Below, piece after piece: positions 7,318 to 55,992 of a DNA stretch of 64,000 nucleotides. The translations under genes were made by a program, and so were the position numbers. The number at the start of each line of letters is the position of its first letter. Position 1 is the first letter of the stretch. Source of the stretch: Dictyostelium discoideum (taxonomy: Eukaryota); assembly GCA_000004695.1 (NCBI GenBank), contig CM000150.2, forward strand, positions 2,496,001 to 2,560,000, read 5' to 3'. The notes under the pieces are model-generated. The model saw only the letters and a list, made by a program, of their open reading frames with translations, was not told the origin of the DNA and searched no databases.

Positions 7318-7392
7318 TTTATTTTCTTTCTATCTTTTTTATTTTTCTTTAAAAAGTTAAAAATCTGGAAATTTTCTAATTAACTTGGTTCC

Positions 7393-7456
<64 letters not shown>
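7122..7456 (-). repeat. retroelement 5' module (contains ORF1 start) with long poly(T/A) tract
   Basis: Direct repeat of 5393..5692. Poly-T run 7381..7456 on the + strand. Confidence 0.6.
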
Positions 7457-7458
<2 letters not shown>

Positions 7459-7576
7459 TCTTTTTTATATGAAAAATGAAATAATCAAAAAAAGAGATTG
7501 TTGTTGTTGTTTGTTTTTTTCGATCTCTAATTAATTAATGACCTAATCTAGTAATTAAAATTTATTTATAACAAAT

Positions 7577-7649
7577 GCCCAGATAGCTCAGTCGGTAGAG
7601 CGCAAGGCTTTTAACCTTGTGGTCGGGGGTTCGAGCCCCCCTTTGGGCG
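7577..7649 (+). tRNA. tRNA-Lys (anticodon UUU)
   Basis: GCCCAGATAGCTCAGTCGGTAGAGCGCAAGGCTTTTAACCTTGTGGTCGGGGGTTCGAGCCCCCCTTTGGGCG. Cloverleaf with 7-bp acceptor stem (one G-T pair), D-arm GCTCAGTCGGTAGAGC, anticodon loop CTTTTAA, T-arm GGGGGTTCGAGCCCCCC, discriminator G. No intron. Confidence 0.9.
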
Positions 7650-7663
7650 AATTTTAAAATAAT

Positions 7664-7935
7664 CAACTTTAGATCAAGTGTTCGACTCTGTATATGAAAT
7701 TAAAAAAATGGTCAACTATCCATTTATATTTTAACCGACCAATATTTTCATGCTTGGAGAGATCACTTTTTTTTTTTTAAAATAAAAAAATAGATTAATC
7801 ATTTATCCCTGGAAATAAGCAATAATTAATAGTTTTAATTATATTTATGAGTTTTTAATTTTAAAATATAAATGGTTAGCTGACCATTTTTTAAAGACGT
7901 TTTTACGGATTCGAACACTTGATCTAAAGATATAT
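7664..7935. repeat. imperfect foldback inverted repeat (about 75-bp arms) immediately 3' of tRNA-Lys; each arm carries a B-box-like motif (probable ex-B box region)
   Basis: Arm 7668..7745 versus reverse complement of 7858..7932: ctttagatcaagtgttcgactc / ctttagatcaagtgttcgaatcc and aaaaaaatggtcaactatccatttatatttt / aaaaatggtcagctaaccatttatatttt. GTGTTCGA(C/A)TC resembles the pol III B box GGTTCGANTCC. The first copy sits about 30 bp downstream of the tRNA end, where Dictyostelium tRNA genes typically carry an extra B box. Confidence 0.45.
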
Positions 7936-8109
7936 TTATTTAAATAAATTTTTAAATATAACTTTCAAAGAAATTACATTATTGGTTTTAAATTTAGAAT
8001 TTAAATATATCTTTTTTCATGAAAAATCCAATTCAAAAAAAAATCTTTTTTCATGAAAAAAAATTATTATTTGATTGTAAATTTTGATTTTGATTTAAAA
8101 AATATTGAT

Positions 8110-8586
8110 TTACTTCTTTAAAGATTGGATGATGAGATGAATCAATTGAATATTCAGTGAAAATGAATCGACAACATTGATTTGTCCACTATCTAAAGAA
8201 TTGATAACGATTGATATTAATAGATTCATATTATTTAATAAAACATTAACCATTGTAATATTTAAATTTTTAAAATAATTGGAAATCTTTAAATGACCAC
8301 ATTGTGATGTAGAATAATTTAAAATGTTTGAAAGTAGGTCAATAACATCACCACTAATACCACTAGTATCACCACTATTACCATATCTAAATAATAAAAA
8401 AGATAAAGTTACATCTAATAAAAGTAAATCACCTCTTTTTGAAATTTCAAATGCCAAATATTTGCAATTAAAAAATTTCTTATTTTTAAAAATTTTAATG
8501 ATTTGATTTTTATCATTATTGTCACAAGTATTATCGCAATTGTTAAATAAATTTGAGTTCAACTTTTTCCCATTATAATATTCCAT
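8110..8586 (-). CDS. hypothetical ORF (158 aa) in unique sequence flanking the duplication; weak
   Basis: ORF MEYYNGKKLNSNLFNNCDNTCDNND... replaces what is exon 3 of the DNase II-like gene in copies 2 and 3. No recognisable domain. May be a non-coding remnant. Confidence 0.2.
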   Translation of the reverse strand: MEYYNGKKLNSNLFNNCDNTCDNNDKNQIIKIFKNKKFFNCKYLAFEISKRGDLLLLDVTLSFLLFRYGNSGDTSGISGDVIDLLSNILNYSTSQCGHLKISNYFKNLNITMVNVLLNNMNLLISIVINSLDSGQINVVDSFSLNIQLIHLIIQSLKK

Positions 8587-8699
8587 TAAAATTAAATCTG
8601 AATTATCAACTAAACATCTTTTTGGTTCAATTTCTAAATACTTATTCCCACATATATTATAAACGTTGTTTATTAATTGATTTAATTATAGTATCTGAA

Positions 8700-9723
8700 T
8701 TAATTTTGCCTATTTTTTAAGAATATTGGTTTGGTAATTTAAAAACACAATTTTAAAAATATAAATTTCTTACCAATTGTGACCATTTATTTAAATAAAT
8801 AACTCCATTCCATATATAAGGATCACCATCATTCTTTTTTTTAACCAAAATATATTTATTCATTAGACCATCCAATTATTTAAAAGTTTTGATAGTTTCT
8901 TTTGCCAAAATTTTACTCTCAATTACTTCCAACTTAATGACTCCTGTTTTTTTCTCGTCAACCTTTTTTTTGAGGTCTTCAGAATAGAAAGAGGCTGATG
9001 ATACCCTTTTTGCTCCAGAACCTGGAAAAACTGTATTAATGGTTTGAATATTTAAATTACCATTAATAATATACTTTGGAATAATATGAAGTTCTTCTTT
9101 TGACAAAGTTATACAAATTGAATGCTGCGCGTGTTGATTATCTAAAGTCCCTGTACCGTAATTATAAAGAGGATGATATAAGGTTCTGGAGATTTTGGAA
9201 CACTGTGAATTACATGAATTCCCCCTTCTTCATTCCAAATAAAAAATCCTTTTGCATGTGCCTTTTTTAACACATGAAACATATGAAAAAAAAAGAATTA
9301 ACAACAAATTATAATAAAAAAAAAATAAAAATAAAAATTTAAAATTAACACATACACTATTATCTCCACGGGTTGATCATTATAGGTCAAACTATTATAT
9401 ATAGTTTTACCAGAGCTATTTGGATAACTCTGTTTGTATGTTGATGCAATTGGGTTTGGCTCATGCGGATTCCTAATATTATAATAAGCTAATTCATTAA
9501 TCACCCTATTTAATTCATTATCAGTATAAATAGCACCTCTACTGTGACTCAATTGTTCTAAAACCCACCATTCAACATTCTTTTCTATTTTAACTCCATC
9601 TTTATCTATAAACACCTGACTTTTTGTATAAACATTTTTTGTTGTTATACATTTTGGAGGAACACAATAAATTTGTGATATTAATAAAAATAAATATAGA
9701 ACTATTATATATTTATTTTTCAT
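8700..9723 (-). pseudogene. DNase II-like gene, copy 1: 5' remnant (exon 1 plus disrupted exon 2), 3' exon lost
   Basis: Exon 1 (9298..9723) is intact, with signal peptide MKNKYIIVLYLFLLISQIYC and a GTATGT donor. Exon 2 begins AHAKGFFIWNEEGGIHVIHSVP, then frameshifts (…SPEPYIILFIITVQGL*) relative to copy 3. It carries an in-frame TAA where copy 3 has GAA (…KTFK* versus …KTFKELDG). After the exon-2 donor, the sequence diverges from copies 2 and 3 (duplication boundary near 8650-8700). Confidence 0.5.
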
Positions 9724-10017
9724 TTCTTAGATCTAGTATAAAAAAAAAAAAAAAAAAAATGAATCTATTTTTGCATTGAAATCTAAATTTGGATTTTTTT
9801 AAAAAAAAACGAACGAATTTTTGTTTCAGAAAAAAAAAAAAAAAAAAATTGATTCTTTTTTTTGTGAAAAAAAAAAAAAAAAAATGAATCTATTTTTGCA
9901 TTGAAATCTAAATTTGGATTTTTTTAAAAAAAAACGAACGAATTTTTTTTTTATTGTTTTCGAGCATCTCTACAAATCTTTTTTAATTTTTTTTTACGAA
10001 ACAGTTCTAAAATGTTT

Positions 10018-10049
<32 letters not shown>

Positions 10050-10113
10050 CTCAAAAAAAAATTATTAAATCTCAGAATATGTTTTTTTAAATCATATTTA
10101 AATTAAATAAAAA

Positions 10114-12047
10114 ATGGTAAAATATAAAATAATAATATCATTTTTATTTTTTATTTTATATTGCAATTGTTTCACATTTGGTAGTTACACATTTGATACA
10201 AAAAATTGGTCAACAAATGGTACACTATCATCATGTGTTTTTTATGATTTTGTAAATAACGATTATTATGATTTAAGAGCTATTGTCCACAATGATCATC
10301 AAGGTCCTTACAAAGCAAGTTTTCCTGCCGAACTTCCTGGTGGAATTCAAACACCTTATACAATGTATTTTAATCCTTGTTTTAATGATAATGTGTGTCC
10401 AGGTGGTCTTTCAGTAGGTTGTATGAGTTATGTGCAAAATTCACAAAAAATTCTTAATTCCGTTGGTTCACTTTCAGAGCCACATTCTATAACATTAAAT
10501 TCAGAAGGTATTTCTATTGAATATCAATCAGCTCTTTTACCATCAACAACATGTGCCTCTAATGGTAACCGTAGAACTTTGGTTTTATTTATTACTTGTA
10601 TCCCAACCGAAACATTTAAAATTATTGGTACTTATAACAGAAGAGTATTATGTGAACATACAATTTATATATCTTCAAAATTAGTTTGTAAAGATAGAGG
10701 AATATTATTTAATCAAGGTCTATTTTATGATTTAACACCAATGAAATTGTAAGTTGTTAAATTCTTTTTTATATTTTTTTTTTATTTTAATTTTTTTTTT
10801 TTTTTGTTTTTAATAAAAAAAAAAAAAACCAAACACGAAATTTTTTGTTTTTAATAAAAATTAAAATATCTAACCACTTTTTTTTCAATTTTTTATTTTT
10901 TTCTTCCCACAGATTAGCAAGCACTTCACACCAAATTACCAACAGTGACCAAACACAAGATATTCTCTTTAATTTATTCGGAAATGTAAATAGATGTGGT
11001 ACTTTCGGTACATCAACATTAAGTTATCAATCATGTATTTTAACAGTTGCTAATAAAGTGATCGATTATAAACTAGATTCAAGATATGCAACATCACCAA
11101 AATCAGTTATGGTAGGATCTCTCAGTCAACCAAGAACAATTACATTTACAAATGATGTAATAACCATAATTTATAGTTCAACAACTGGTTTCACAGAATG
11201 CTCATCAAATGGTAACAAATATTCATCAAAGTATATTTTAATTTGTGATCCATTCACAGAATATTATGTAGATAAATTTACATTAGAATCACAATGTATT
11301 TATCAAATTAAGGTTTATACTAAATACGCATGTCCAACATTACGTTTATTCAAACAAACACAATATTATGACCTTTCACCATTGATGTTGTAAGTATTCA
11401 ATTTATTCTTGTATTTCTTCAAAACAGTTATTAATTATTAATAATAAAATAAATAATAGGGATTCAACAAGAAATTATACAACAAGTCATATTACAGACG
11501 GATATGAGTATAATATTGTATTCAATATTGGTAATAAAGCACAAATGTGTAGCGATGCATTTAATGATTATTATTTTGCTTGTCAATATGATCCACGTTA
11601 TAAAAGTTTTAATCCACTTGCAAAGGCAAGTTTAGGTCAAAGAGTAACATTTGATTTAAATCAAGTTAAATTCGAATATACTTCACCAATGTCAGGTTGT
11701 TTAAGAACTTTTATTATTGTTTTAACTTGTGATGAAAACCAACATTATCAATTAGTTTCAACTTTAGAATCTCCTGCATGTGTATATACAGTAACAATTG
11801 AAACTAAATATGTATGTGAATCAACAATTTATTACAATAGATTCGACTATACATATTATGATATTACTCCAATAAAAACGTAAGTTTTAAATTAAATTTG
11901 AAATTAAATTTAAATATAAATAATAATATTAATAATATTAATAATCTTTATTGTCAACAACTAAAATATTAATTTAATTAGAGAAAAAGATAGTCCAAAT
12001 AAAATAGATATTGTTGTTGGTGGATATCCATATAGAGTAAGTAAATT

Positions 12048-12100
<53 letters not shown>

Positions 12101-15100
12101 AACAAATATTTTTCTAATAGCTTTTTTATGGTATCGGTAATACTGTTGATTATTGCGGAGAACAAGTGGGATCAGTCCCTGGTGTAGATTATCAAGCTTG
12201 TCAATATCTCAGTGGTCTTGTTATTCAAGTCGGTAGTTTAAAAAATACATCAATGATTCTTAATAAGGATGGTATAAGTATATATCATACCTCACCATTC
12301 GATTTAACCAAAGTGTGCCAAAATACAAGATATCAAAGAGTAAACATTTTAAATATGGTATGTGATCCAACAGCAACAAATGTTGTGGTCAGCGCTACTG
12401 AGACTGCCAACAATTGGGCATGTGAATATACAATCGAAATTAAAACTAAATATGCATGTTCAATTAATTATGCACCAGTATTACCAGTTGTTGGAAATCC
12501 ATGTTTATACAGTTGTACACCACCAGGTGCTTTAAATCCAAAAGCTATAGTTAGTGTACTTTTAAATTTAGGTGTTTGTTTCTCAGAGATTAATAAATAT
12601 GGTACAGGTGCACAATCATTACTTAATATATTTAAAGATACTTGGGTTTCAAATCACAATGGGTATGATGATTGGATGGGTGGACAACTTTATTCACTAT
12701 TATTAACAGGTAAACCACAGTCAACAATTTCACCATATGTTATTTCAATTACACATGATAATTTATGTACATATGGTGCCGATGGGTTAAGTAAAGCAAA
12801 AAATTCAATCAATGATTTTCTTACTATTACAAATGATCTTCTTGAAATTTCAAATCGTGCAGTTAGTTTAACCGTTACCAAATATACATATTCAGATGGA
12901 GCAATTACATTATCAACACATAAACTTTTATCAACATCAACTGGAGGTCTTGCAATTATTAAATACAAAAATTTGCTATGCTACTATTCAATAGTCCCAA
13001 ATTTACAAACTTTAATTATTGGGAGTTATTTGCTTTCTTGCCCATATTATTCACTACCAACTATTACAGTGCACAGTTTAACACCATCAATAGGGAAAGT
13101 TGGAGATACTATCACAATTAATGGTCAAAATTTAGATACAGATATATATGATGTTTATTTCAACATTATTGATGACAACAGTAAAATTAAAGCAACAATA
13201 ACATCAAGAACCGTAAATTTTGTAAAAGTAATTGTTCCAAATGGTTTTGGTAATGCATTAGTCTACACTCAAAATATACTTAATCCAACTACCTCCGATA
13301 AACTTTCATTTTCATATCCATCACCAACGATTGTCAAAGTAATTAGTCAACCATTTAGTACAGGTATCATCAATAGATTCTTTGTTATTGGTCAAAACCA
13401 TCGTTCTTTAATAACCAATATTGTTATTAATCCATACATCGATAATATTGAAAAAGAAGCAATTTATTGTGAAATTGAAAAGTATTGTCCAAGTTCATCA
13501 AAAATTCCATCGATTTCAGGATCAGCAGTAGGTCATCCATGTATTGATTCAACAGTTTACTCTGAGAATTCCCAGTTTTTCGATTATTCCAAGTATGATG
13601 TTTTTGTTTGTATCAAATCATCATTAGGTGTTGGAAGTGGTATCATTAAATTCCCATCACAAACATTTACATTTGCATACTCTTATAAAGCACCTCTCTT
13701 ATATTTTGTACCACCTGGCATTCGTATTCCAACTGATGGTGGTAGTTTTCAATTGGATGGTAAAAACTTTCCGCCAACACAAGAAATCATTGATCTCGGT
13801 TTAAACACACCTGTAATCATTTGGAATAATGATAATTTTGTTACATTCAAAGGAACAAATCTTGCAAATACCAATATCAATTGGAAGAGTTCGAAATCGA
13901 TTTTATGTGTTGCACCACCTGGTTTCGGTGGACCATTCATCGTTACAGTAACTGTCGGTAAACAAGTGTCAAAGACTATATATCCAAGTGATTTAGATGA
14001 AAATCCAACAAATTATAATTTATATTATTATCCCCCAGCAGTTGTTGACATATCAGAAGTTTCAACTGATGGTGGTGAAGTTATAATAAAAGGTACAAAT
14101 TTTATTCCAGCCTCGCTTAAAGATCAAATTAATAATCAACCAATAATCGGTTCACCTCATTCAGTAGAGTTTAATAATGTTTTATCTTCATCATGGACAT
14201 GGATTGATTCAACACATGTAAAAGCCATCGTACAAAAAGGTATTGGTACAATCTCTACAATTGTAAATGTTGGTGGTCAAAGATCTGATTTAAATCCAAT
14301 TCCTGTAAATTTTTACAAAAGACCTGAACTAGATAATAAAAAATATGAAAACTTTGCAAATAGTGATATTTTAATAACTGGTTCTAATTTTATACCAGTT
14401 GGTGTTTCAGCAGGTTCATCAAGTTCTGTCAAAATCGGAGGTATTCCCTGTAACTCTGTAACATGGGTAGATTCAAAATCTGTTATTTGTAATGTGCCAA
14501 TTGGAACTGGTGATAATTTAAATATCCAAGTAACAGTTGGAGGTCAACAAACCGAATTAAATGATTATTTCTCATATTTAGGGCAATGCGATTTCCTCTG
14601 TAGCGATTTATCAAATTTAGTAAGTTTTTAAACATTTTAATTACAGAAAAAAAAAAAAAAACTAAAAAATACTAATTTATTATCATTTTTATCTCAAAGG
14701 AATTAGCAAAAGTTATTGGGGAAAATAAAAAAGATTTAAAGAGTACTCTTTTATTAACAGGTGTATGTTTAGAACAAATTGAGCAATATAATTTCACAGA
14801 TATTAATGATGAAATTGAATCAAGTTGGATTGAAAACTCAATTATTGATGATTGGACAAGTGGTAAATTCTATAACTATTTCAAATCATCAGAATCATAC
14901 TCAACAGTTAAAACACTTGCAAAATATATTACACCAAAGAATCCATGTATTTATGAAAATAAAAGAGTAAAGAATTCATTAGATTACCTTTTTGAAATCA
15001 ATTCAGATATTTTCCATTTAATTGAACTTTCAATTTCATCAAAAATCAGTTATCCAGATTCACCATATGAAACTTATTTCTATGAATCATCAAGCAACCC

Positions 15101-18100
15101 AGAGTATGGTCTTTCAATTATTACATTTGATTCAGCAATTTGTAGCTTTACAGAATCAACTATTCAAGACTATCAAAGTGGAAAAGTATTACAATCATGT
15201 TCAATCATTCCAATTATAAATCAAGTAATTAATCCAACAACAACACTTCAAGCACCATATCAATATTCACTTACAATAATTGGTAGATTATTTGATAGTT
15301 CAACTAGAATATTCTTATCAGGTTATGAATGTCCAATCATTGGTAATATCGCTACTAATCAAAATGATTATATTCAAACTCTTAGTTGTTCAGTACCACC
15401 AGAAATCGAATCATACTCGGCCTCTCAAATTACTTTTTACAATGATTATAGTGAAAATAATATATATAATTTCTTGTTTTATTTTAAAAAATCATTCTTT
15501 TTTAAATATCCAATTTCAACAGTAACTCAAATTCAATACCCATCAAGTGGTCCAATTCAAATGAATTCTGAAATTAAAGTAATTGGTTTTAATTTCTTCC
15601 CATATGGTATTACAAATCCAAGCATTCAAGTTTTTATTGATGATCTTGAATTAACTGATACTATATTTGGATTAACAAGCATAAATGGAGTTGATTCATT
15701 TTCATTTATTGCTTCTGGTTTAGGTTCTTTAAAGTAAGTGAAAAAAAAAAAATTAAAAAAAAAAATTTATAAATATTTATTAATATTTAAAAATATTTTT
15801 TTACAGTTTCATTCGATTATTTTATAGTAATAGTTTACCGATGTTTATAAACGATGATATTAATTTAGAATTCTCATTTGAAAGACCAATTATTAATAGT
15901 ATATTACCAACAAATGGAGATTACAATACAAAAGTTACAATTAATGGTAATAATTTTAGAAAAGGTCAATCAGTAAAAATTGGAGACATATTAGTAAATG
16001 ATATTGAATTCATTTCAAACCAAGAGATTATTGCTTCAGCACCATTTGGATTTATTAGTGGACTTGTAGTTGTTTATTCAGATGATCAATTCAGTTTAGA
16101 AGAAATATCATTTAGTTATACTTCACCAATTATAGACCAAGTTATTCTTTCAAATTATGAATCAAAATTAAACACAACAGGTACAAATTATTTCACAGTA
16201 ATAGGTAGAGGTTTAGGTACATACATTGCAGAACAAGTCGATATTATTATCAATCAAGAGTTTTATGCAAGTTGCGAATTCGATTTCTGTGAAAGTTTAG
16301 AAATTATTGAAGATATAGATATAAAAGATCAAGGAATTTGTCAATATTTAAAATATAATAAATATCAATATATCAATGAAAACTTTGATATATTAAATTG
16401 TATTTTAACCGATTCGATTGGTAAAGATAAATCAATCAGTATCAAAATTTCAGAATTCCAAAACCAAACTTTCACCTACTCTTATTATGAACCATGGATT
16501 GAAAAATTAACACAAAACTCTTCATCAGCAAACACTGATGGTGGTGAAGTTATCGTTATAAATGGTTACAACTTTTTACCATTCGAAAATTTAAGTCCAT
16601 ACTATGAAAACAATGAAACTATTGCACAATGGTTAAATCAATCAGAAATATTAATTGGTGAAAGCTATCTTTGTCAATCAATTAATTGGACCAATTCCTA
16701 TGAATTAAATTGTACAATCCCACCAGGAATTGGTGTTAATCATACAATCATTGTAAAAGTAGGCCTTCAATCATCAAATCATACTGATTATTTGTATTCT
16801 TACGATTCACCAAACCTTGATACAATCAATAACTCCACTGGAAATGAAACACATTACTATTCTTCAACAGATGGTAACAATGAAATTATAATAACAGGTT
16901 ATAACTTTATTCCAAAAGAGTTATCAGATCATTACAACCAGAATGAAAATAAAACCATAAATTCAATACTATTAGGTAAACAATATTGTAATGAAACTAT
17001 TTGGATTAATTCAACAACAGTCAAATGTAAACCAATAGCAGGTATCGGGTCAAATTACAAAATTATCATTAAAGTTGGTAATCAAGATTCAAACGAAACC
17101 GTTTACTTCTCATATGAGAAGCCAATTTTAGATTTAAAGAATTACACAGGTTCAACAAATGGTAATACTGAAATTACAATAACAGGTATCAACTTTATTC
17201 CAAAAGAATTAGCAGATAATAATAATTTCAATCAATCAGAGAACTATATAATGATTGGTGATAATAAATGTAACGAAACTATTTGGATCAACTCAACAAC
17301 AGTTAAATGTAAACCAATATCAGGTACTGGTATCAATCATAGAGTTATAATAACAGTTGGTAATCAAAACTCAAATGAAACGGTCTACTTTTCATATGAT
17401 AAACCAATTTTAGATATTAAAAACTATAGTAGTCCAACTGATGGCAATACTGAAATCACAATAACAGGTGAAAACTTTATTCCAAAAGAATTAGCAGAAA
17501 ATAATAATTTCAATCAATCAGAGAACTATATAATGATTGGTAATAATGAATGTAATGAAACTATTTGGATCAATTCAACAACAGTTAAATGTAAACCGTT
17601 AGCAGGTATCGGGTCAAATTACAAAATTTTCATTAAAGTTGGTAATCAAGATTCAAATGAAACCGTTTACTTCTCATATGAGATGCCAATTTTAGATTTA
17701 AAGAATTACACAGGTTCAACAAATGGTAATACTGAAATTACAATAACAGGTATCAACTTTATTCCAAAAGAATTAGCAGATAATAATAATTTCAATCAAT
17801 CAGAGAACTATATAATGATTGGTGATAATAAATGTAATGAAACTACTTGGATCAATTCAACAACAGTTAAATGTAAACCAATATCAGGTACTGGTATCAA
17901 TCATAAAGTTATCATAACAGTTGGTAATCAAAACTCAAATGAAACGGTCTACTTTTCATATGATAAACCAATTTTAGATATTAAAAACTATAGTAGTCCA
18001 ACTGATGGAAATACTGAAATCACAATTACAGGTGAAAACTTTATTGAAAATTATAATCAAGAAAAACATAATGAAAATGATAATTTCGTTAGAATTGGTG

Positions 18101-20856
18101 AAAATAAATGTAATGAAACAAAGTGGATAAATTCGACAACAATTAAATGTAAAATAATTCAAGGTATTGGTTTAGATTATAAAATAGTTGTAACAGTTGC
18201 CAATCAACAATCAAATGAAAATGTTTTCTTTTCATATGAAAAACCAATGATTGACAGTAAAACACTATTAGCATCAACCAGTGGCAGTGAAACTATTAAA
18301 ATTACAGGTACTAATTTCATTCCATCAACTTTAGTAGAACATTACAACAAAGAAGAAAATAAAGATAACTCAATAAATTCAGTTACTATCAATAACGAGT
18401 TTTGTAATGATATTACATGGATTAGCTCAACAGAACTAACATGTAAACCATTAGCAGGAGTTGGAACCAATCATACTATATTCATTTTGGTTGGAACTCA
18501 AAAATCAAATGAAGAAAACTCATTCTCATATAAACCTCCGAATATTGAAGAGTTTAAATACTACACAGCACCAACACATTCCAATAAAATTATTACTATA
18601 ACTGGTGAAAACTTTATTCCAATCGAATTATTATCAAAAGACAACAGCAATAGTTCAGTACTTATTGATAATATAAAATGTGAAGAAATCAAATGGATTG
18701 ATTCAACAAAAGTTTCATGTCAAGTTCCAGTAGGTCAAGGTAAAGATTTATCGATTAAAGTTAAAATTGAAAATCAAGAAACTGAAGAAAATCAACAATT
18801 TTCATATGATAAACCATTTATTCAATCAATCAATCCAAATAAAGGAAGATGTAATCAAGAAGTATTAATTACAATTCAAGGTGATAGTTTTGGAAAGAGT
18901 GATCAACTAATTAAAATTGGTAATAACGAATGTCAAGATATTCAATTCTATCCAAATCATACATTTACATGTAAAGTTCCAATCGTGGAGAATTCAATTG
19001 AATCCATTGTTTTATTAAATGTTGGCAATCAAGATTCAAACGATAACATTACATATAAATACTATGGACCACCAGAAATTAAAAGTATTGGTTTACCATC
19101 ATATCTTTCATTCAAAGGTGATGATTTAATTACAATCATTGGTAATAACTTTATAGAATATGATGATGGATCTGATGAAATTGTTAAATTTAATAATGAA
19201 CCAACAACTATCATTGAAAACACAGAAACATACATTAAAATTAAAACTCTTAGTGGTGATGAATTTAATGTACCAATTGCTGTAGAATTAAATGGTCAAA
19301 TAAGTAATACAGATACTTCATTCGTTTACTCAAATCCAATAATTGAAAGTGTAACACCATCATCAAGTAGCTCAAAATCAAATACTAATATCATCATTAA
19401 AGGACATAATCTTGGGTATTTAACAAACACTCCCAAAATTACAATTGGAAGTAGTAATTGTTTAAATATCAAAACTATATCTCCAAATGAAATTCATTGC
19501 ATCGTTATGAAATCAAGCGCAGGCACTAAACAATTAACATTAACCTATGAAAGTTATCAACCAACCTATTCACAATTCACTCACAAAAACGATGATGACA
19601 GTGATAGCCACGATGATGATGATGATGACCATAAAAACAATAATGGACCAAAAAACACCATATTAAGTATTCTTGGAGGTATAATTGGAGCAGCAGCATC
19701 AGCAGCCGTAAGTGGATTTATAACAAGCATTTTCGGTGGTGCGACATCAGTAGCCACAGCAGCAGCAACAGCAACAGCAGCAGGTACTGCGGTAGCAGCA
19801 GCAACTACAGCGTCAACAGCAACAGCTATTGCCGGTGCAATTACCGAAGGTGTTGCAGTGGCCTTTACAGGGGTATCAGTAATAGCAGCAACAGCAGGTG
19901 GTGTTGTTATTACTTCAATTGTAACAGCAACAGCCATCCTTATTTCAGGTGGAAGTACACAATCACCAACTCCAACCATAGCTCCAACTATTTCACCAAC
20001 TCCAACGCCAACCGATAACTATTGGGTAAGATGTATGGTCGATTATTCAAGATTAACTTTACAAGTCGATAATCTTTACGGTCAAGATATAGTATGTATT
20101 GATGGTAATGGAATTTCATCAATTTTCAACGAATCATTCTCTTGTAAACCTGATCTTATTAACGATGGTATGATATGTGCTCAACAACATCAAGATGGAA
20201 CAAATTCAACAACCACATTTGGTAATTCAACATTAATTTGTCATATTGACTCAACAAAATCATGTGAAATTTCACCACCATTCATCATACCATCCGATCC
20301 AATTGAAGATGATGAATATTCAAATATTCTAGAATGTCAATATAATCTCATTGAAAATTCATTATCAACACACTCTAATAATAGTCCACTAAGATGTTAT
20401 AATAATGAAACTGAAAATTACTTCATTATGAATACTACACTTTCATGCTCAAAAGATGAATCATTAAGTCAAGATAAAGATACGATTTCTTGTTTAGCAG
20501 ATACAGATGACACTCAAATCTTTTTCTATAAGAACTCAATTACATGCATTACAGATTATCCATACTATAGATGTACAATGAAATCTCAACCATCACAAGA
20601 TGATAACATAATTCCAAAACCAACATTACCACCAATTCCATCAATTGATGATGATTCCACATGTATTTATGATTCAGCCAATTCATATTCAATAGATCTC
20701 CAACTAACGACTGGAACTAATGCTAAATGTCCAAAAAATGAAAAAGAACTTCGTTATGATCTTTCAACTTCTCTAACATGCACTGATTATATCACACTTA
20801 AAAACTCCACTTATTCAATTTCATATTCAAATTACATTTGCATTAAAACAAAATAA
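10114..20856 (+). CDS. giant secreted/membrane glycoprotein with 4 CI-MPR-like (MRH) repeats plus IPT/TIG repeat array plus Ala/Thr hydrophobic block plus Cys-rich C-terminal domain; copy 1, 7 exons: 10114..10748, 10913..11389, 11460..11879, 11982..12036, 12121..14619, 14700..15733, 15807..20856 (about 3389 aa)
   Basis: Signal peptide MVKYKIIISFLFFILYCNC. Exons 1, 2, 3 and the start of exon 5 each encode a roughly 150-aa Cys-containing domain ending in a C-x-Y-x-h-x-h-x-T-K-Y-A/V-C motif (CIYQIKVYTKYACP, CVYTVTIETKYVCE, CEYTIEIKTKYAC, CEHTIYISSKLVCK). Each is followed by YDLSPL/YDLTPM/YDITPI, the pattern of cation-independent M6P-receptor repeats. All introns are GTAAGT...AG, AT-rich, and phase-consistent. 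Exons 5-7 encode many roughly 96-aa beta-sandwich repeats (…TDGNTEITITGENFIPKEL…CNETIWINSTTVKCKP…VGNQ.SNETVYFSYEKP…) typical of IPT/TIG domains, with N-glycosylation sites throughout. C-terminal part: acidic HDDDDDDH, roughly 100-aa GC-rich Ala/Thr hydrophobic low-complexity block, PT-rich linker, then a roughly 290-aa Cys-rich domain. Confidence 0.65.
17118..18050 (+). repeat. tandem array of near-identical 288-bp units (alternating A/B variants) encoding IPT/TIG-like repeats inside exon 7
   Basis: Units starting EKPILDLKNYTGSTNGNTEITITGINFIPKELADNNNF… (A) and KPILDIKNYSSPTDGNTEITITGENFIPKELAENNNF… (B) recur A-B-A-B with almost identical nucleotide sequence. Paralogue copy 3 (38951..43393) has exactly one A-B pair fewer (1480 versus 1671 aa in the last exon). 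Confidence 0.7.
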
Positions 20857-20895
20857 AAACAATTAAAAAATTTTAAAAAACAAAATGATATAATA

Positions 20896-20974
20896 ATTTA
20901 ATGAAATAATTTAATTACTATTTTTACTATTTTTTTTATTTTCAAAAAACTGTAATTAAATTATTTCATTAAAT
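20896..20974. repeat. 23-bp perfect inverted repeat in the convergent 3' intergenic region between the receptor-like gene and the next DNase II-like gene
   Basis: atttaatgaaataatttaattac (20896..20918) and gtaattaaattatttcattaaat (20952..20974) are exact reverse complements separated by about 33 bp. The same structure is retained downstream of copy 2 (about 29655..29735). Confidence 0.5.
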
Positions 20975-21194
20975 CATTATGTCACACCACCCAAAATTCA
21001 ATTCTGAAAACTTTTTTTATTTAATTACCCTTAAGAAAAAATTAAATGTGAAAATAAATGTTATATTTATTTTAGTTTTGTTTTTTTTTTTAAATTATCA
21101 TTAATAATAATGATGCACCATTTGGTATTATCTAATTTTGAAAACTAAAAAAAAAAAAATTTATTTTTGGAATTAGTTAAATTTAAAAAAAAAT

Positions 21195-23300
21195 TTAAAT
21201 TAAAATATAATTAATACTTACACCTTTGGTATATTCACCCAAAACTTTTGTAAATTCCTTAATGGAATTGATGTTTTGTAGATCACCATGTCTATTTTCA
21301 GTTAAGAGAATACAATAGATAAGATGATCTTGGCAATCTGGATGATATTTAATGATTTTTGAGTCTGTATCACTTGGAAAAGCTTTACATATTTTTTTAT
21401 TAATTTCATTATAATCCTTATGACCTTTTTCGCTATCACTTTGATCGCCTTCGATTTTATTTGGGAATTTAAATGGTACTAAATCATTGATTTCAACTTC
21501 TTTCAATTGAATGATGTTTTTATTTTTAATAAATTTCAATTTTTCATAAAGTTCTTTTACTAAATCAATATTTTTTAAATCGATATATATCTTATCTGGG
21601 AAAGGTGTGAGTATTGATGTTGGTTCGATAATGGTATTTTGTGTTAGAGCAGTTACCTTTTTATTATCTCTTGATGAGGTAAGTGTAAATGTTGATTCAA
21701 CATAGATATCTTTAAACAATTGGTAAGATTTGGATTTTTCAAAGCTACAAGTGACATCATCATTATCACATAAAATAATTTCCCCATTGATTGATGGAAA
21801 CACATTGAAATCGAATAACTCTGATTTGTATATATTTTGATCCTTAAGTTGGGTTAATAGTGGAATATAAACATTGTCATAACCATAGTTATATTCATTT
21901 GAAAATAATTTATCTTCATCTTTTTCATTATTGTAAACGATATTAAATGGATTCAAATGATAGTATTTTTCATCATCTCCATAACCTTTTACCTTGGTTT
22001 CAAAGTTTAGCTTTCTGTTACCTAAAACATTAGATCATTTGGATATTTTTCTATTAATTCGTTTAAATTCAACTTTTGACCTGCAATGCTATTTAATCTT
22101 AAAGAAGCTTTTCTAAGATATTGACCATCCTCTGGGTGTCTAATTATACCAACTCTTCTGTAAAAGTATTCAGAAAGATATTTCATTTCGTCACTGCAAA
22201 AAGAACCACCTCCACGTGCCTCTTGCCTTCCATGCCAATTTAAATCACCAAAGCAAATAGTCCCACCACCGCCACCGCTATATGCTTTATCCATATAATT
22301 GATTTGATAAGACATTTTTGAATGGTCACTTCCTGAATCAGAGCTAATAACTGTTGACCAAGGTGTTTCGAATCTGTAAGAAAGATATATTGATACAACT
22401 GCTGGAGACATTTCATTTTTTCCTTTTTCCATCTTTGTTTGAGTATGGACCATTGTTTTAAAATTATTACCATTTTTAAAACTATAGATGTAATGCCAAA
22501 GTATAAAAAATTTAATTTTTTCCTTGTGAGTATTTTCAATTTTATCACTATACTCTTTATAAAGGTGTGTATTTGTTGTTTGAATGAAGTAATCCCCTTT
22601 ATTTTTACTCTCATAAATTTTATTATAGTGAACATTTGTTTCATGAGCTGTATCTGATGATGTAATATTTTTGTTTAGAATTAAATCTGCCTATTTTAAG
22701 AATGTAAGTTTGATGATTTATTAACACAAATTTATAATTAAAATTACTTACCAATTGTGACCATTTATTTAAATAAATAATTCCATCCCATATATCAGGA
22801 TCAACTTTATTCTTTTTTTTAACAAAAATATTATCACTCATTAGATCATCCAATTCTTTAAAAGTTTTGGGAATTTTTGTTTCTAAAATTGAACTATCAA
22901 TTTTTTCCAACTTAATGACTCCTGAGCTTATCTTTTCAACCTCTGTTTGAAGATTTTCGGAATAAGAATCGGCTGATGATACCTTTTTAACCTTTTTACC
23001 ATTTCCTGTTGAAACTGTATTAATGGTTTGAATATTTAAATTACTATAAATAATATACTTTGGAATAATATAAAGTTCTTCTTTTGACAAAGTTATACAA
23101 ATTGAATGTTGAGCATGTTGATGATTTAAAGTATTTTTATCGAAATTAAAAAGAGGTTCATATCCTGTTTCTGGAGATCTTGGAACACTGTGAATTACAT
23201 GAATTCCCCCATTTTCATTCCAAATGAAAAATCCTTTTGCATGTGCCTTTTTTAAATAAATAAATTAAAAAAAAAAAATATGTTAACAAATAATGATAAC

Positions 23301-23337
<37 letters not shown>

Positions 23338-23734
23338 AATAATAAACACAAACACTATCTTCACCACTACTGAGCTGATCATTATAAGTCAAACTATTAT
23401 ATATAATTTTGTTGTCAGATTTATTTGGTAAACTCTGTTTGTATGTAGATGTAATAGGGTTTGGTTCTTTTGGATCTCTAATATTATAATTTGCAATTTC
23501 ATTTATCTCTGAACTTCCTCCTTTTAATGTGTTATCAGTATAAATAGCACCTTGACTGTGACTTAATTGTTCTAAAAACCACCATTCGACATTCTTTTCT
23601 ATTTTAACTCCATCCTCAAATACTTGACTATCCTTGTAAATATTTTTTGTTGTTATACATTTTGGAGGATCGTTACAATAAATAGGTGATATTAATACAA
23701 ATAAATATAAAAAAATAATATATTTATTTCTCAT
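21195..23734 (-). pseudogene. DNase II-like gene, copy 2: 3 exons present but reading frame broken in exon 3
   Basis: Exon 1 (23336..23734, signal peptide MRNKYIIFLYLFVLISPIYC) and exon 2 (…AHAKGFFIWNENGGIHVIHSVPRSPETGYEPLFNF…MSKEELYIIPKYII…) are intact. In exon 3 a 5-bp deletion relative to copy 3 (near 22030) shifts the frame. This gives ORFs 22022..22453 (…DHSKMSYQINYMDKAYSGGGGGTICFGDLNWHGRQEARGGGSFC…KYPNDLMF*) and 21195..21956. Confidence 0.5.
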
Positions 23735-24164
23735 TTTCTTAAGTCTAATGTTATAATGTTTGTTTCAATTTTTTAAAATTGGGTGTGTTTTTGCGAAAAA
23801 AAAAAAAAAAAAAAAAAAAATGGCTTTGTCGTCAACAAAAAAGAAAAAAAACTAAAATTGGATCATTTAAAATAAAATAAAAAAACGAACGAAAATATTT
23901 TTTTTTAATCGTTTTTAGATGGTTTTACCACTCCTTTGATTATTGAAAATCTTTTTTAAATATTTTTAGATTTTTTTTTTTTTATTTTTTTCGACCCATT
24001 ATTTTATAAAAAAAAAAATAATAAAAATTACCCCCACAAACCGCTTTTTTTTTTTTTTTTCACAAAGCCTGGTTTTTAATTTTTTTAACACTTTTTGGCT
24101 TTGCATCTTTATCGCTTAAAATACGGTTTGGAAAATACAACATTTTTTTTTTAATCAACCATAC

Positions 24165-24196
<32 letters not shown>

Positions 24197-24221
24197 TCGT
24201 ATTGAAATTAAAAAAAAATGG

Positions 24222-25808
24222 TAAAATTTTAAATAGTTATATCATTTTTATTATTTATTTTATATTTTAATTGTTTCACATTTGGTAGTTACACATTTGA
24301 TACAAAAAATTGGTCAACAAATGGTACACTATCATCATGTGTTTTTTATGATTTTGTAAATAACGATTATTATGATTTAAGAGCTATTGTCTATCCTGAT
24401 CATCGAGGTTCCCACAGAGCAAGTTTCACAGCTGAGCTTTCTGGTGGAATTCAAACACCATATACAATATATTTTAATCCTTGTTTTAATGATCATATGT
24501 GTCCAGGTGGTCTTTCAGTAGGTTGTATGCAAAAATAGAGGAGTATTATTTAATCAAGGTCTATTTTATGATTTAACACCAATGAAATTGTAAGTTATTA
24601 AATTCTTTTTCATATTTATTTTTTTATATTTTTTTTTTTTAAAATAATTATCAAAAAATAAAAAAAAAAAAGAACCAAACACAAAATTTCAAAATAAAAA
24701 AATCTAATCTTTTTTCACTTTTTTTTATTTTTTTTTAATTTTTTTATTTTTATTTTTTTTTCCCACAGATTAACAAGCACTTCACACCAAATCACCAATG
24801 ATGACCATACAAAAGATATTCTCTTTAATTTATTCGGAAATGTAAATAGATGTGGTACTTTCGGTACATCAACATTAAGTTATCAATCATGTATTTTAAC
24901 AGTTGCTAATAAAGCGATCAATTATAAACTAGATTCAAGATATGCAACATCACCAAAATCAGTTATGGTAGGATCTCTCAGTCAACCAAGAACAATTACA
25001 TTTACAAATGATGTAATAACCATAATTTATAGTTCAACAACTGGTTTCACAGAATGCTCATCAAATGGTAACAAATATTCATCAAAGTATATTTTAATTT
25101 GTGATCCATTCACAGAATATTATGTAGATAAATTTACATTAGAATCACAATGTATTTATCAAATCAAAGTTTATACTAAATACGCATGTCCAACATTACG
25201 TTTATTCAAACAAACACAATATTATGATCTTTCGCCATTGATGTTGTAAGTATTCAATTTAATTAAAAAACTTTTTTGGTGTTTTATTCTTTTGCGCTTA
25301 TTAATTATTAATAATAAAATAAATAATAGGGATTCAGCAAGAAATTATACAACAAGTCACTTTACAGACGGATCTGAGTTTTTTATTGTATTCAATATTG
25401 GTAATAAAGCACAAATGTGTAGCGATGCATTAAATGATTATTATTTTTCTTGTCAATACGAACCACGTCAAAAATTTTTTTATCCACTTGCAAAGGCAAG
25501 TTTAGGTCATAGAGTAACATTTGATTTAAATCAAGTTAAATTTGAATATACTTCACCATCAACAACAACTTGCTCATCAAATTCCTATAAAAGAGATCTT
25601 ATTGTTATTTTAAATTGTGATGAAAACCAACATTATCAATTAGTTTCAACTTTAGAATCTCCAACATGTGTATATACAATAACAATTAAAACTAAATATG
25701 TATGTGAATCAACAATTTATTACAATAGAATTAACTATACCTATTATGATATTACTCCAATAAAAACGTAAGTTTTAAATTAAATTTAATTATAAATTAT
25801 AAATTATA

Positions 25809-25874
<66 letters not shown>

Positions 25875-28800
25875 TATAACTTTATTAACAACCAAAACTA
25901 TTAATTTTAATTAGAACAAAAGATAGTCCAAAAACTGTAGATATTGTTGTTGGTGGATATCCATATAAAGTAAGGGATAATTTTTAAATTTTTAAATTTT
26001 TTTTTTTTTTTTTTTTTTTTTTTGACAAACACCAAACGTGTGTGAAACTAAAATTTAAATATTTTATATATATTTAAAAATGGTTACTAACTTTACTTTA
26101 TTAATTTTTTCCAACAGCTTTATTACGGTATAGGTAATACTGTTAATTATTGCTCAAATCAAGTGGAGTCAGTTCCAGGTGTTGATTATCAAGCTTGCCA
26201 ATATCTCAGCGGTCTTGTTATTCAAGTCGGTAGTTTAAAAAATACATCAATGTATATAAGTAATAATGGTATAAGTATATATCATACCACACCATTTGAT
26301 TTAACCAGAGTATGCCAAAATACAAGATATCAAAGAGTGATACAACAGCAATTAACGTTGTGGTCAGCGCTACGGAGACTGCCAATTATTGGGCATGTGA
26401 ATATACAATCGAAATTAAAACCAAATATGCATGTCCAATTAATTATGCACCAGTATTACCAGTTGTTGGAAATCCATGTTTATACACTTGCACACCACCA
26501 GGTGCTTTAAATCCAAAAGCTATAGTTTGTGTACTTTTAAATTTAGGCTTGTTTCTCAGAGATTAATAAATATGGTACAGGTGCACAATCATTACTTGTT
26601 ATATTCAACAATACTTGGGTTTTAAACCACAACGGATATGATGATTGGATGGGTGGACAACTTTATTCACTATTACTAACAGGTAAACCACAAACATCGA
26701 TTTCACCATATGTTAGTTCAATTACACATGATAATTTATGTACATATGGTACCAATGGGTTAAGTAAAGCAAAAAATTCAATCAATGATTTTCTTACTAT
26801 CACAAATGATCTTCTTGAAATTTCAAATCGTGCAGCCAGTTCAACCGTTACCAAATATACATATTCAGATGGAGAAATTACATTATCAACACATAAACTT
26901 TTGTCAACATCAACTGGAGGTCTTGCAATTATTAAATACAAAAATTTGCTATGCTACTATTCAATAGTTTCAAATTTACAAACTTTAGTTATTTCGAATT
27001 ATTTGCTTTCATGTCCATATTATTCACCAACTATTACAGTGTTCAGTTTAACACCATCAACAGGGCAAATTGGAGATATTATCACAATTAATGGTCAAAA
27101 TTTAGATACAAATAGATATGATGTTTATTTCAACATTATTGATGACAACAGTAAAATTAAAGCAACAATAACATCAAAGTAATTAGTCAACCATTTAGTA
27201 CAGATATCATCAATAGATTCTTTGTTATTGGTCAAAACCATCGTTCTTTAATAACCAATATCACCATTTATCCATATATCGATAATATTGAAAAAGAAAC
27301 AATATATTGTGAAATTGAAAAGTATTGTCCAAGTTCATCAAAAATTCCATCGATTCCAGAATCAGCAGTAGGTCATCCATGTATTGATTCAACAGTTTAC
27401 TCTGAGAATTCTCAGTTTATAAGGTACAAATTTTATTCCAGCCTCGCTTGCAGATCAAATTAATAATCAATCATTAATTGGTTCACCAAATTCAGTCACG
27501 TTTAATAATGTTTTATCTTCATCATGGAAATGGATTAACTCAACACATGTAAAAGCCATCGTACAAAAAGGTATTGGAGCAATCCTTACAATTGTAAATG
27601 TTGGAAGCCAAAGTACTGAAACGAGTCCATATCCCGTAATTTTTTATAAACAACCTGAATTAGATAATAAAAAATATGAAAACTTTGCAAATAGTAATAT
27701 TTTAATAACTGGTTCTAATTTTGTACCAGTTAGTGTTTCAGCAGGTTCATCAAGTTCTGTCAAAATCGGAGGTATTCCCTGTAACTCTGTAACATGGGTA
27801 GATTCAAAATCTGTTATTTGTAATGTACTAATTGGAACTGGTGATAATTTAAATATCCAAGTAACAGTTGGAGGTCAACAAACCGAATTAAATAATTATT
27901 TCTCATATTTAGGGCAATGCGATTTCCTCTGTAGCGATTTATCAAATTTAGTAAGTTTTTAAACATTTTAATTACAGAGGAAAAAAAAAACTAAAAAATA
28001 CTAATTTTTTACATTATAATCTCAAAGGAATTAGAAAAAGTTATTAGAGAAAATAAAAAAGATTTAAAGCAATAGTTCAGTACTTATTGATAATATAAAA
28101 TGTGAAGAAATCAAATGGATTGATTCAACAAAAGTTTCATGTCAAGTTCCAGTAGGTCAAGGCAAAGATTTATCGATTAAAGTTAAAATTGAAAATCAAG
28201 AAACTGAAGAAAATCAACAATTTTCATATGATAAACCATTTATTCAATCAATCAATCCAATTAAAGGAAGATGTAATCAAGAAGTATTAATTACAATTCA
28301 AGGTGATAGTTTTGGAAAGAGTGATCAACTAATTAAAATTGGTAATAACGAATGTCAAGATATTCAATTCTATCCAAATCATACATTTACATGTAAAGTT
28401 CCAATCGTGGAGAATTCAATTGAATCCATTGTTTTATTAAATATTGGCAATCAAGATTCAAACGATAACATTACATATAAATACTATGGACCACCAGAAA
28501 TTAAAAGTATTGGTTTACCTTCACATCTTTCATTTAAAGGTGATGATTTAATTACAATCATTGGTAATAACTTTATAGAATATGAAGATGGATCTGATGA
28601 AATTGTTGTTAAATTTAATAATGAACCAACAACTATCATTGAAAACACAGAAACATACATTAAAATTAAAATTCTTAGTGGTGATGAATTTAATGTAACA
28701 GCAACAGCCATCCTTATTTCAGGTGGAAGTACACAATCACCAACTCCAACCATAGCTCCAACTATTTCACCAACTCCAACGCCAACCGATAACTATTGGG

Positions 28801-29629
28801 TAAGATGTATGGTCGATTATTCAAGATTAACTTTACAAGTCGATAATCTTTACGGTCAAGATATAGTATGTATTGATGGTAATGGAATTTCATCAATTTT
28901 CAACGAATCATTCTCTTGTAAACCTGATCTTATTAACGATGGTATGATATGTGCTCAACAACATCAAGATGGAACAAATTCAACAACCACATTTGGTAAT
29001 TCAACATTAATTTGTCATATTGACTCAACAAAATCATGTGAAATTTCACCACCATTCATTATACCATCCGATCCAATTGAAGAGATGAATATTCAAATAT
29101 TTTAGAATGTCAATATAATCTCAATGAAAATTCATTATCAACACACTCTAATAATAGTCCACTAAGATGTTATAATAATGAAACTGAAAATTACTTCATT
29201 ATGAATACTACACTTTCATGCTCAAAAGATGAATCATTAAGTCAAGATAAAGATACGATTTCTTGTTTAGCAGATACAGATGATACTCAAATCTTTTTCT
29301 ATAAGAACTCAATTACATGCATTACAGATTATCCATACTATAGATGTACAATGAAATCTCAACCATCACCAGATGATAACATAATTCCAAAACCAACATT
29401 ACCACCAATTCCATCAATTGATGATGATTCCACATGTATTTATGATTCAGCCAATCCATATTCAATAGATCTCCAACTAACGACTGGAACTAATGCTAAA
29501 TGTCCAAAAAATGAAAAAGAACTTCGTTATGATCTTTCAACTTCTCTAACATGCACTGATTATATCACACTTAAAAACTCCACTTATTCAATTTCATATT
29601 CAAATTACATTTGCATTAAAACAAAATAA
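24222..29629 (+). pseudogene. MRH/IPT receptor-like gene, copy 2: decayed, internally deleted remnant
   Basis: Exon-1 homologue has a 1-nt insertion giving ATG GTA AAA TTT TAA, plus a roughly 300-bp internal deletion (24222..24590). Exons 2 and 3 remain (24965..25249, 25292..25771). The exon-5 homologue is fragmented by frameshifts and deletions (26163..27182 and following). The whole region equivalent to 14640..18640 of copy 1 is missing. The C-terminal fragments 28407..29105 and 29201..29629 carry a precise deletion of the Ala/Thr block (…EFNV|TATAILISGG…). Confidence 0.6.
25811..25870. repeat. (AAT)n microsatellite in intron 3 of receptor-like copy 2
   Basis: About 20 perfect ATA/AAT triplets. 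The orthologous intron of copy 1 (11885..11975) has only a few. Copy 3 has about 40 (34897..35019). Confidence 0.8.
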
Positions 29630-29953
29630 AAACAATTAAAAAATTTTAAAAAACAAAATGATATAATAATTTAATGAAATAATTTAATTACTATTTTTAC
29701 TATTTTTTTTTATTTTCGAAAAACTGTAATTAAATTATTTCATTAAATCATTATGTCATACCACCCAAAATTCAATTCTGAAAACTTTTTTTTTATTTAA
29801 TTACCCTTAAGAAAAAATTAAATGTGAAAATAAATGTTATATTTATTTTAGTATTGTTTTATTAATTTAAATTATTAATGCACCGTTTATCTAATTTTGA
29901 AAACTAAAAAAAAAAAAATTTATTTTTGGAATTAGTTAAATTTAAAAAAAAAT

Positions 29954-33045: not shown

Positions 33046-43393
<10,348 letters not shown>

Positions 43394-52312: not shown

Positions 52313-55992
<3,680 letters not shown>

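Follow-up and report, generated by a model that had tools for sequence, protein, structure and literature searches.

A stretch of 64,000 nucleotides of Dictyostelium discoideum DNA (assembly GCA_000004695.1, contig CM000150.2, positions 2,496,001 to 2,560,000 of the forward strand; hereafter the window, numbered from its first nucleotide) was analyzed with a focus on a low-complexity hydrophobic block in the protein encoded by a giant gene. The window is AT-rich overall, with a guanine and cytosine (GC) content of ~0.25, and the giant gene occurs in it three times in tandem on the plus strand, the middle copy being degenerate. Copy 1 (10114..20856) is a multi-exon gene with its last exon at 15841..20856, copy 2 (~24218..29629) is a fragmented pseudogene, and copy 3 lies at 33046..43393. 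The block (GPKN...ILISGG) comprises 103 codons at 19645..19953 on the plus strand of copy 1 and is placed downstream of the last IPT/TIG repeat and ahead of a Cys-rich C-terminal domain. An earlier note on this DNA had quoted the peptide, which is indeed encoded exactly at these positions in the reading frame of the last exon (15841..20856).

The product of copy 1 has ~3,200 aa and consists of a signal peptide, MRH-like repeats, ~15 or more IPT/TIG repeats, the hydrophobic block, a Pro/Thr-rich (PT) linker, and the Cys-rich domain. A D. cf. discoideum homologue of 3198 aa (P0003) covers copy 1 at 10114..20853 in tblastn. The exon that begins at 10114 starts with the signal-peptide-like sequence MVKYKIIISFLFFILYCNCFTFG, with a hydropathy peak of 1.95, and no stop interrupts the exon at 14700..15737. 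The 1671 aa of the last exon (15841..20856) match the Pfam family TIG (PF01833) with E=7e-137 in 12 stretches, and three more PF01833 stretches are found in 12166..14631. The homologous gene of D. cf. discoideum has a weak PRKCSH_1/MRH match, and one AX4 paralogue carries the name "MRH domain-containing protein." The protein ends in ...YICIKTK, without a tail of the glycosylphosphatidylinositol (GPI) type.

Both flanks described in the earlier note, an acidic tract containing SHDDDDDDH and a PT-rich linker, are present. The acidic, putatively juxtamembrane tract HKNDDDSDSHDDDDDDHKNNN (19582..19644, plus strand) is partly a (GAT)n microsatellite, with 5.7 copies of GAT at 19612..19628 according to Tandem Repeats Finder (TRF), and shows indels between the copies. 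The linker STQSPTPTIAPTISPTPTPT (19954..20013, plus strand) contains a 14-nt direct repeat and is variable in length, its length-variable part lying at 19963..20006.

Composition, reading frame, and selective constraint of the block

Among its 103 residues, the block holds 29 Ala, 17 Thr, 15 Gly, 13 Ile, 10 Val, and 9 Ser, together with a single Lys and a single Glu, while Ala occurs only 22 times in the remaining 1568 residues of the exon. A run of 63 residues in the block is free of D, E, K, R, H, N, Q, Y, W, and P, a set that makes up 46% of the other residues of the protein; by our own arithmetic (0.54^63), the chance of such a run is ~1e-17. The block is real and far beyond what chance would produce.

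The underlying DNA had been called strikingly GC-rich. The rise itself was confirmed, as GC reaches 0.50-0.55 in 100-nt windows at 19700-19900 compared with ~0.27 in the flanks, but it does not represent an anomaly at the DNA level. At codon positions 1, 2, and 3, GC amounts to 0.56, 0.69, and 0.155 in the block, to 0.34, 0.32, and 0.164 upstream, and to 0.34, 0.42, and 0.15 downstream, and the observed GC of the block (0.469) compares with 0.456 expected from the peptide and the gene's own codon usage. Since GC at third codon positions (GC3) is that of the rest of the exon and the predicted value is close to the observed one, the GC spike reflects amino-acid composition. Foreign or inserted DNA as its source is ruled out by GC3.

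Selection was assessed with four intact copies, namely copies 1 and 3 of the window and two from D. cf. discoideum, whose orthologous locus (GCA_054859235.1; L001, L002) holds two intact copies and a truncated one. In all four, the block measures exactly 103 codons and contains no stops, frameshifts, or indels, while its two neighbors, the (GAT)n acidic tract and the PT linker, differ in length from copy to copy and from genome to genome. The copy 1 block differs from its D. cf. discoideum orthologue by 13 synonymous and 10 non-synonymous changes, which corresponds to a ratio of non-synonymous to synonymous substitution rates (dN/dS) of 0.30 (Fisher p=0.007), and the copy 3 block compared with its own orthologue gave 0.29 (p=0.003). 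These values are similar to those of the flanking IPT and Cys-rich regions (0.23-0.34). Replacements in the block stay within G, A, S, T, V, I, L, and F, except for N4D, G24R, G76R, and G102D.

The antisense open reading frame (ORF) noticed earlier at 19581..19979 on the minus strand exists and encodes 132 aa, but it carries no biological weight, being a mechanical by-product of composition and not a gene. A stop in the register of this ORF requires a sense Tyr, His, or Gln codon that follows a codon ending in T or C. Such codon pairs occur last at 19582 and next at 20020, ~146 codons apart, and each of the three His/Gln codons within this interval is preceded by a base that does not allow a stop; the antisense frame is thus open because the pairs that would create a stop are missing. 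It is also open in copy 3 (42127..42474) and in D. cf. discoideum (L001 6797..7105), where it recurs because the peptide is conserved. A real antisense gene is ruled out, as the composition of the sense strand accounts completely for the open frame.

Part of the block is bracketed by a gtaagt...tttcag pair (19708..19948, plus strand), and splicing there would break the frame, as had been pointed out before: from the GTAAGT at 19708 to the end of the TTTCAG at 19948 there are 241 nt, which leaves a remainder of 1 on division by 3. The GC content of this interval is 0.477, compared with 0.098 and 0.117 in the short stretches that separate exons of this gene. The pair is a chance match, and a real intron at this position is ruled out by the frame, the GC content, the dN/dS of 0.29-0.30, and the exon-like GC3. 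The hexamers of the GT...AG type, together with an antisense frame that stays open in other copies, are what could be said in favor of a block that is non-coding or alternatively used, be it as a (facultative) intron or as the template of an antisense gene. Set against a frame-breaking candidate intron with a GC of 0.48 instead of the ~0.10 of the gene's short introns, a sense-frame dN/dS of ~0.3, a GC3 equal to that of the exons, and an antisense frame held open by absent Tyr, His, and Gln codons, this possibility is hardly credible.

The block is coding and constrained, with purifying selection acting on its amino-acid sequence; treating it as coding, as the earlier note did, was justified by the dN/dS of ~0.3, the exon-like GC3, and the lack of intron traits. 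In an AT-rich genome, a succession of GCN/ACN/GGN/GTN codons automatically produces the GC spike, the antisense ORF, and the splice-like hexamers. Taken together, we regard these two conclusions as very probable.

Two block types, a repeat-containing middle, and the deletion in copy 2

The block had also been reported for copy 3, with many substitutions. A diverged version is present there, at 42182..42490 (plus strand) rather than at 42150..42480, and this type B block has 103 codons, differs from that of copy 1 by 20 amino acids, and carries Arg at block positions 24 and 76. When 17619..20860 was compared with 40700..43393 of the window, copies 1 and 3 diverged by 1.1% over 1.65 kb upstream, by 10.7% in the block, and by 3.5% downstream; counted per 150 nt, there were 0-3 differences over 17689..19100 and 20011..20300 and 12-21 across the block. 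Divergence of the block is 7.4 and 8.4% in the orthologous pairs and 10.7-14.2% in the paralogous pairs, and the block, with part of the last IPT repeat, is the one region where orthologues are closer to each other than paralogues. The flanks have thus been homogenized within each genome, yielding a gene-conversion mosaic, while the block retains two older types, type A (...AFTGVSV...) and type B (...VFTRVSV...). The many substitutions in copy 3 are therefore explained by the existence of these two types.

Between the block types, dN/dS is 0.6-0.9 and not distinguishable from 1. This ratio would be compatible with a functionless remnant drifting in decaying pseudogene copies, as would the presence of pseudogene copy 2 in the array, of truncated P0001 and of P0004 with a 16-aa deletion in other strains, and of mere fragments in the AX4 annotation. 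However, the exons of copies 1 and 3 are open throughout, and within each type dN/dS is ~0.3, like the 0.23-0.34 of the flanks, so that a drifting remnant is very improbable.

Copy 2 itself consists of short ORFs, with large parts of the gene gone and several other internal deletions and frame changes. Its lack of the block had been attributed to a clean deletion at GTA microhomology. Alignment of the copies recovered the junction, EFNV joined to TATAILISGG (GATGAATTTAATGTA next to ACAGCAACAGCC, 28683..28700, plus strand), as well as the microhomology (TGTA), but the deletion is not precise for the block. It corresponds to 19273..19923 of copy 1, that is 651 bp or 217 codons in frame, and takes 93 of the 103 block codons along with the acidic tract and the last IPT/TIG repeat in its entirety. 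As it is not specific to the block and lies within a pseudogene, the deletion is uninformative on whether the block is dispensable. A protein of 1321 aa annotated in a D. discoideum strain assembly (P0005) is stitched from fragments of copy 2 and keeps the same junction.

The middle of the block is a central Ala/Thr tract (19741..19848, plus strand). Within it, a degenerate CAG/CAA repeat at 19752..19828 is read in the GCA/ACA frame and thus yields Ala and Thr (TRF periods of 3, 6, 18, and 21, with 65-83% matches). This array of ~25 codons makes up about the central quarter of the block and is included in the direct-repeat families D1-D3, which span 19688..19934. P0004, a degenerate copy in another strain, lacks 16 aa of the tract, and the loss is read, from the sequence of copy 1, as a deletion between ACAGCAACAGC direct repeats. 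Length polymorphism of the tract was not seen among the four intact copies, which show no indels; only the degenerate P0004 is shorter.

Homologues, hydropathy, and topology

A phmmer search against 1.84 billion representatives gave 10 matches, among which there was no informative distant relative; all nine whose source was looked up come from Dictyostelium. Word-indexed homologue searches were swamped by low-complexity words and scored 2 of 8000 candidates. Searches of Pfam with the block, the Cys-rich domain, and the module of the paralogues described below gave nothing meaningful (best DUF5989 with E=1.5, and weak sub-threshold SPRY and C25_C), and a profile built from the paralogue module alone had no matches, not even among its own members. 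The nearest AX4 gene models are unnamed hypothetical proteins.

Members of the family seem to be split or truncated in the AX4 annotation (DDB_G0290815/DDB_G0290813, DDB_G0289225, and DDB_G0268484; P0014, P0016, P0002, and P0010), and in DDB_G0289225 a fragment of the Cys-rich domain follows immediately on an N-terminal IPT portion. P0001, the truncated D. cf. discoideum copy (L001 10819..11154), has only the first hydrophobic segment of the block, followed by an unrelated Lys-rich stretch ...IFGGVMKFLNKTRD..., and thereby mimics a classical single-pass transmembrane (TM) protein with a basic tail.

A paralogous subfamily includes P0008, a protein of 2456 aa from wild strains of D. discoideum, and P0011 of D. 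dimigraforme; an AX4 member of the 90% cluster of P0008 is split into DDB_G0290815 and DDB_G0290813. The Cys-rich domain of both proteins is homologous to that of the window (25-28% identity, 13 invariant Cys), and a module of ~100 aa at the position of the block aligns with it with few small gaps. The module starts with a strongly hydrophobic helix of 20-25 residues, IVIFMVIGLAALVAAALLA, for which P0008 shows a Kyte-Doolittle (KD) value of 2.97 and a summed ΔG of -3.95; all ΔG values given here are simple sums on the Hessa 2005 scale. It continues with a conserved K/R-rich stretch of net charge ~+5, ...ALEKSLQFGFAAVTRRVVTQVAKDGIKRVS... (…ALEKSL.FG..AV.RRVVTQVAK.GIKRVS…), and ends in a short hydrophobic piece, TIALAMVVT. 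In the alignment, the Arg that type B carries in FTRVSV falls on the Arg of TRR/KR in P0008 and P0011. The block is thus a charge-depleted version of a conserved membrane-proximal module.

With a 19-residue KD mean of 1.6 as the threshold for a TM segment, two segments of the block pass in all four intact copies, and the middle stays below. Segment 1, TILSILGGIIGAAASAAVSGFITSIFGG (19657..19740, plus strand; residues ~5-32), is a candidate first TM helix with a KD peak of 1.83 and aligns with the strong TM helix of P0008 and P0011. The middle tract has KD values of 0.8-1.3 and, in copy 1, a summed ΔG of +3.7 to +6.3. Segment 3, GVAVAFTGVSVIAATAGGVVITSIVTATAILIS (19849..19947, plus strand; residues ~69-101), is the hydrophobic maximum of the block and a candidate second TM helix, in which KD peaks at 2.0 (copy 1) or 2.2 (copy 3) and the best 19-mer has a ΔG of +0.96 in copy 1 and of ~-0.2 in the type of copy 3. 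The block is the sole hydrophobic region past the signal peptide, as judged by hydropathy over the 152 residues before the Cys-rich domain and by eye for the last exon.

The Cys-rich domain (20014..20856, plus strand) has 16 Cys in three beta-rich repeats and no hydrophobic tail at its C-terminus. It measures ~280-300 aa and contains 14 or 16 Cys, ~6 per repeat and 13 of them invariant across both subfamilies, and few His. AlphaFold2 predicted it to be all-beta, with a predicted local distance difference test (pLDDT) score of 70-83 in two of the three repeats. No Pfam family and no convincing fold match in the PDB were found for this domain, and it may be an undescribed one.

These features suggest that the block is probably the membrane anchor of a giant secretory-pathway protein. 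The earlier proposal of one or two TM passes still sets the right frame, and its point that the position of the TM segment decides whether the Cys-rich domain is extracellular still holds. We favor, tentatively and as an unproven model whose chances we put somewhat below even, a two-helix hairpin with the IPT array and the Cys-rich domain both outside. The two ends of the block (residues ~5-32 and 69-101) would each cross the bilayer as helices, and the central Ala/Thr tract, grown from the degenerate CAG/CAA repeat, would form the connecting loop on the cytosolic side. Held by such a helical hairpin, the protein would present both its IPT/TIG array and its disulfide-type Cys-rich domain to the exterior of the cell. 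The N-terminal flank of the block is strongly acidic and the C-terminal flank is without K/R for ~27 residues, so that neither flank looks cytosolic. In type B, segment 3 has a single basic residue, which lies toward the loop. An extracellular Cys-rich domain would also fit its invariant Cys and scarce His, the PT-rich linker ahead of it, and two N-x-S/T sequons that the subfamilies share at aligned positions.

Several observations weigh against the hairpin. Segment 1 is only marginally hydrophobic, with a summed ΔG of ~+2 kcal/mol. The loop contains one Glu and no K/R in type A, and one Glu and one Arg in type B (two Arg in copy 3 of the window); it thus has no net positive charge and departs from the positive-inside rule. 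No helical 100-degree periodicity of small versus bulky residues was detected beyond that of shuffled sequences in any segment or copy (P=0.11-0.74), and the AlphaFold2 models of the module were of low confidence in both subfamilies (pLDDT 23-35). The positional sharing of sequons in the Cys-rich domain is marginal (P=0.07), and the number of sequons in the C-terminal domain is not enriched compared with shuffles (P=0.17-0.19). In the paralogues, the counterpart of segment 3 is VSTIALAMVVTK, whose length is too small and whose charge is too high for a membrane span, and with only one clear TM segment there, a single pass with a cytosolic Cys-rich domain is favored, at least in the paralogous subfamily. 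A literature search found no expression or experimental data for any member of the family.

The main rival is accordingly a single-pass type I anchor, in which segment 3 or segment 1 alone spans the membrane and the PT linker and the Cys-rich domain are cytosolic. The one convincing TM segment of the paralogues is followed by a K/R-rich stretch (net ~+5) in the classical type I pattern, segment 3 is the only part of the window's copies that approaches a ΔG of ~0, and the C-terminal sequons lack statistical enrichment. Such an arrangement is, however, difficult to reconcile with the absence of K/R for ~27 residues past segment 3 and of any charge after segment 1 in type A. It would also place in the cytosol a beta-rich domain with 13 invariant Cys behind a mucin-type PT linker, which is atypical for that compartment, and would leave a further ~70 uncharged hydrophobic residues in contact with water on one side of the membrane. 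We consider a single pass unlikely for the window's proteins, although it is the most serious competitor of the hairpin.

In Dictyostelium matrix and spore-coat proteins, tracts rich in Ala/Thr/Ser/Gly are found next to PT linkers and Cys-rich modules. By analogy, the block might lie outside the membrane altogether, as an extracellular low-complexity spacer of a secreted matrix protein that is mucin-like or self-associates in an amyloid-, silk-, or elastin-like manner. The marginal hydrophobicity of segment 1 would fit such a spacer, as would an alternating pattern of small and apolar residues in part of the block, with peak power at 140-180 degrees, which is not significant. However, the TM threshold is exceeded twice within the block, the first helix of the paralogue module (KD 2.97, ΔG -3.95) is expected to be integrated by the translocon, and strict conservation of length is unusual for a spacer when the neighboring low-complexity tracts vary. 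The amyloid- or silk-like alternative raised before found no positive support, and a location outside the membrane is improbable overall.

Relation to known systems and significance

Tgr proteins combine a signal sequence with IPT/Ig-like E-set repeats and a TM domain, and tgr genes occur in clusters of duplicates and pseudogenes, with head-to-head pairs and signs of gene conversion (10.1101/2025.10.22.684067). The giant protein resembles Tgr proteins such as TgrB1 and TgrC1 in its signal sequence, its IPT/TIG array, and its hydrophobic segment, and the giant genes likewise are clustered with duplicates and a pseudogene, have a head-to-head partner, and show signs of gene conversion. However, the giant protein is ~3x larger and has N-terminal MRH-like repeats, its hydrophobic region consists of 103 uncharged residues instead of one helix of ~20 residues, and this region is followed by a Cys-rich domain of ~300 aa in place of a cytoplasmic tail. 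In its head-to-head pair, the giant gene faces a DNase II-like gene and not another IPT/TIG gene. The search matches are unnamed Dictyostelium proteins (MRH or IPT/TIG domain-containing). The link to the Tgr family drawn in the earlier note thus holds loosely, for the signal peptide, the IPT/TIG repeats, and the hydrophobic segment, but the protein is not an annotated Tgr and has the additional MRH-like and Cys-rich parts; it is Tgr-like in architecture only. Literature searches found no paper on proteins with MRH plus IPT/TIG domains, and for the AX4 gene identifiers only a list of genes without recovered knock-outs.

The repeating unit of the tandem array (5983..43393) is the giant MRH and IPT/TIG gene on the plus strand with a divergent DNase II-like gene on the minus strand, such a partner accompanying each of the three giant copies, and the order is alike in D. 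cf. discoideum (L001, L002), with an intact copy, a truncated copy, the DNase II-like gene, and an intact copy. A DNase II-like copy 3' of giant copy 1 (21207..22453, minus strand) matches the intact copy of 423 aa (29954..31225) in two pieces that abut at 22028/22031 in different frames, suggesting a frameshift. A further N-terminal fragment of this family lies at 9370..9723. In a six-frame scan, the sole other long apolar runs were found at 53400..55000, within the ORF 53132..55945, where very long repeats of the AAT/ATT type give rise to off-frame runs of 40-125 Ile or Leu; these are trivial homopolymers.

Compared with P0008 and P0011, the window proteins share the overall architecture, the position of the ~100-aa module, and the homologous Cys-rich domain. 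However, nearly all charges of the module are replaced by A/T/G/V/I in the block, and its hydrophobic maximum is C-terminal instead of N-terminal. Like the poly-Q and poly-N tracts of Dictyostelium, the middle of the block contains a degenerate trinucleotide repeat, with one degenerate copy short of 16 codons, but the repeat is read as Ala/Thr instead of Gln, is interrupted and constant in length among intact copies, and lies between two non-repetitive hydrophobic segments. Helical-hairpin and glycine-zipper anchors provide a further parallel, given the two hydrophobic segments rich in Gly/Ala/Ser/Thr, the loop of ~35 residues, and outer flanks that are not positive; unlike these anchors, the block has no positive-inside loop and no significant 3.6-residue periodicity.

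Types A and B have been kept distinct across two genomes despite gene conversion of the flanking kilobases. We consider it a long shot that the D. discoideum lineage turned a TM helix with charged surroundings, in an adhesin-like giant protein, into a membrane-embedded and almost charge-free segment of ~100 residues, and that this segment itself carries specificity, for example in the homotypic or heterotypic pairing of paralogous giant surface proteins.

The block is an unusual low-complexity, charge-free candidate anchor in an uncharacterized, lineage-restricted family of giant surface proteins, and as such a real but largely ordinary feature. It illustrates that, where the genome is AT-rich, an Ala/Thr/Gly-rich peptide alone can bring about splice-like hexamers and a long antisense ORF as well as a local GC spike. 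The AX4 models of the family appear fragmentary, and the gene models deserve curation. If the hairpin is true, one long charge-free anchor would display the MRH repeats, the IPT/TIG array, and a novel Cys-rich beta domain, which would bear on cell-cell or cell-matrix contacts in the social amoeba by proteins that are related to Tgr only via IPT/TIG.

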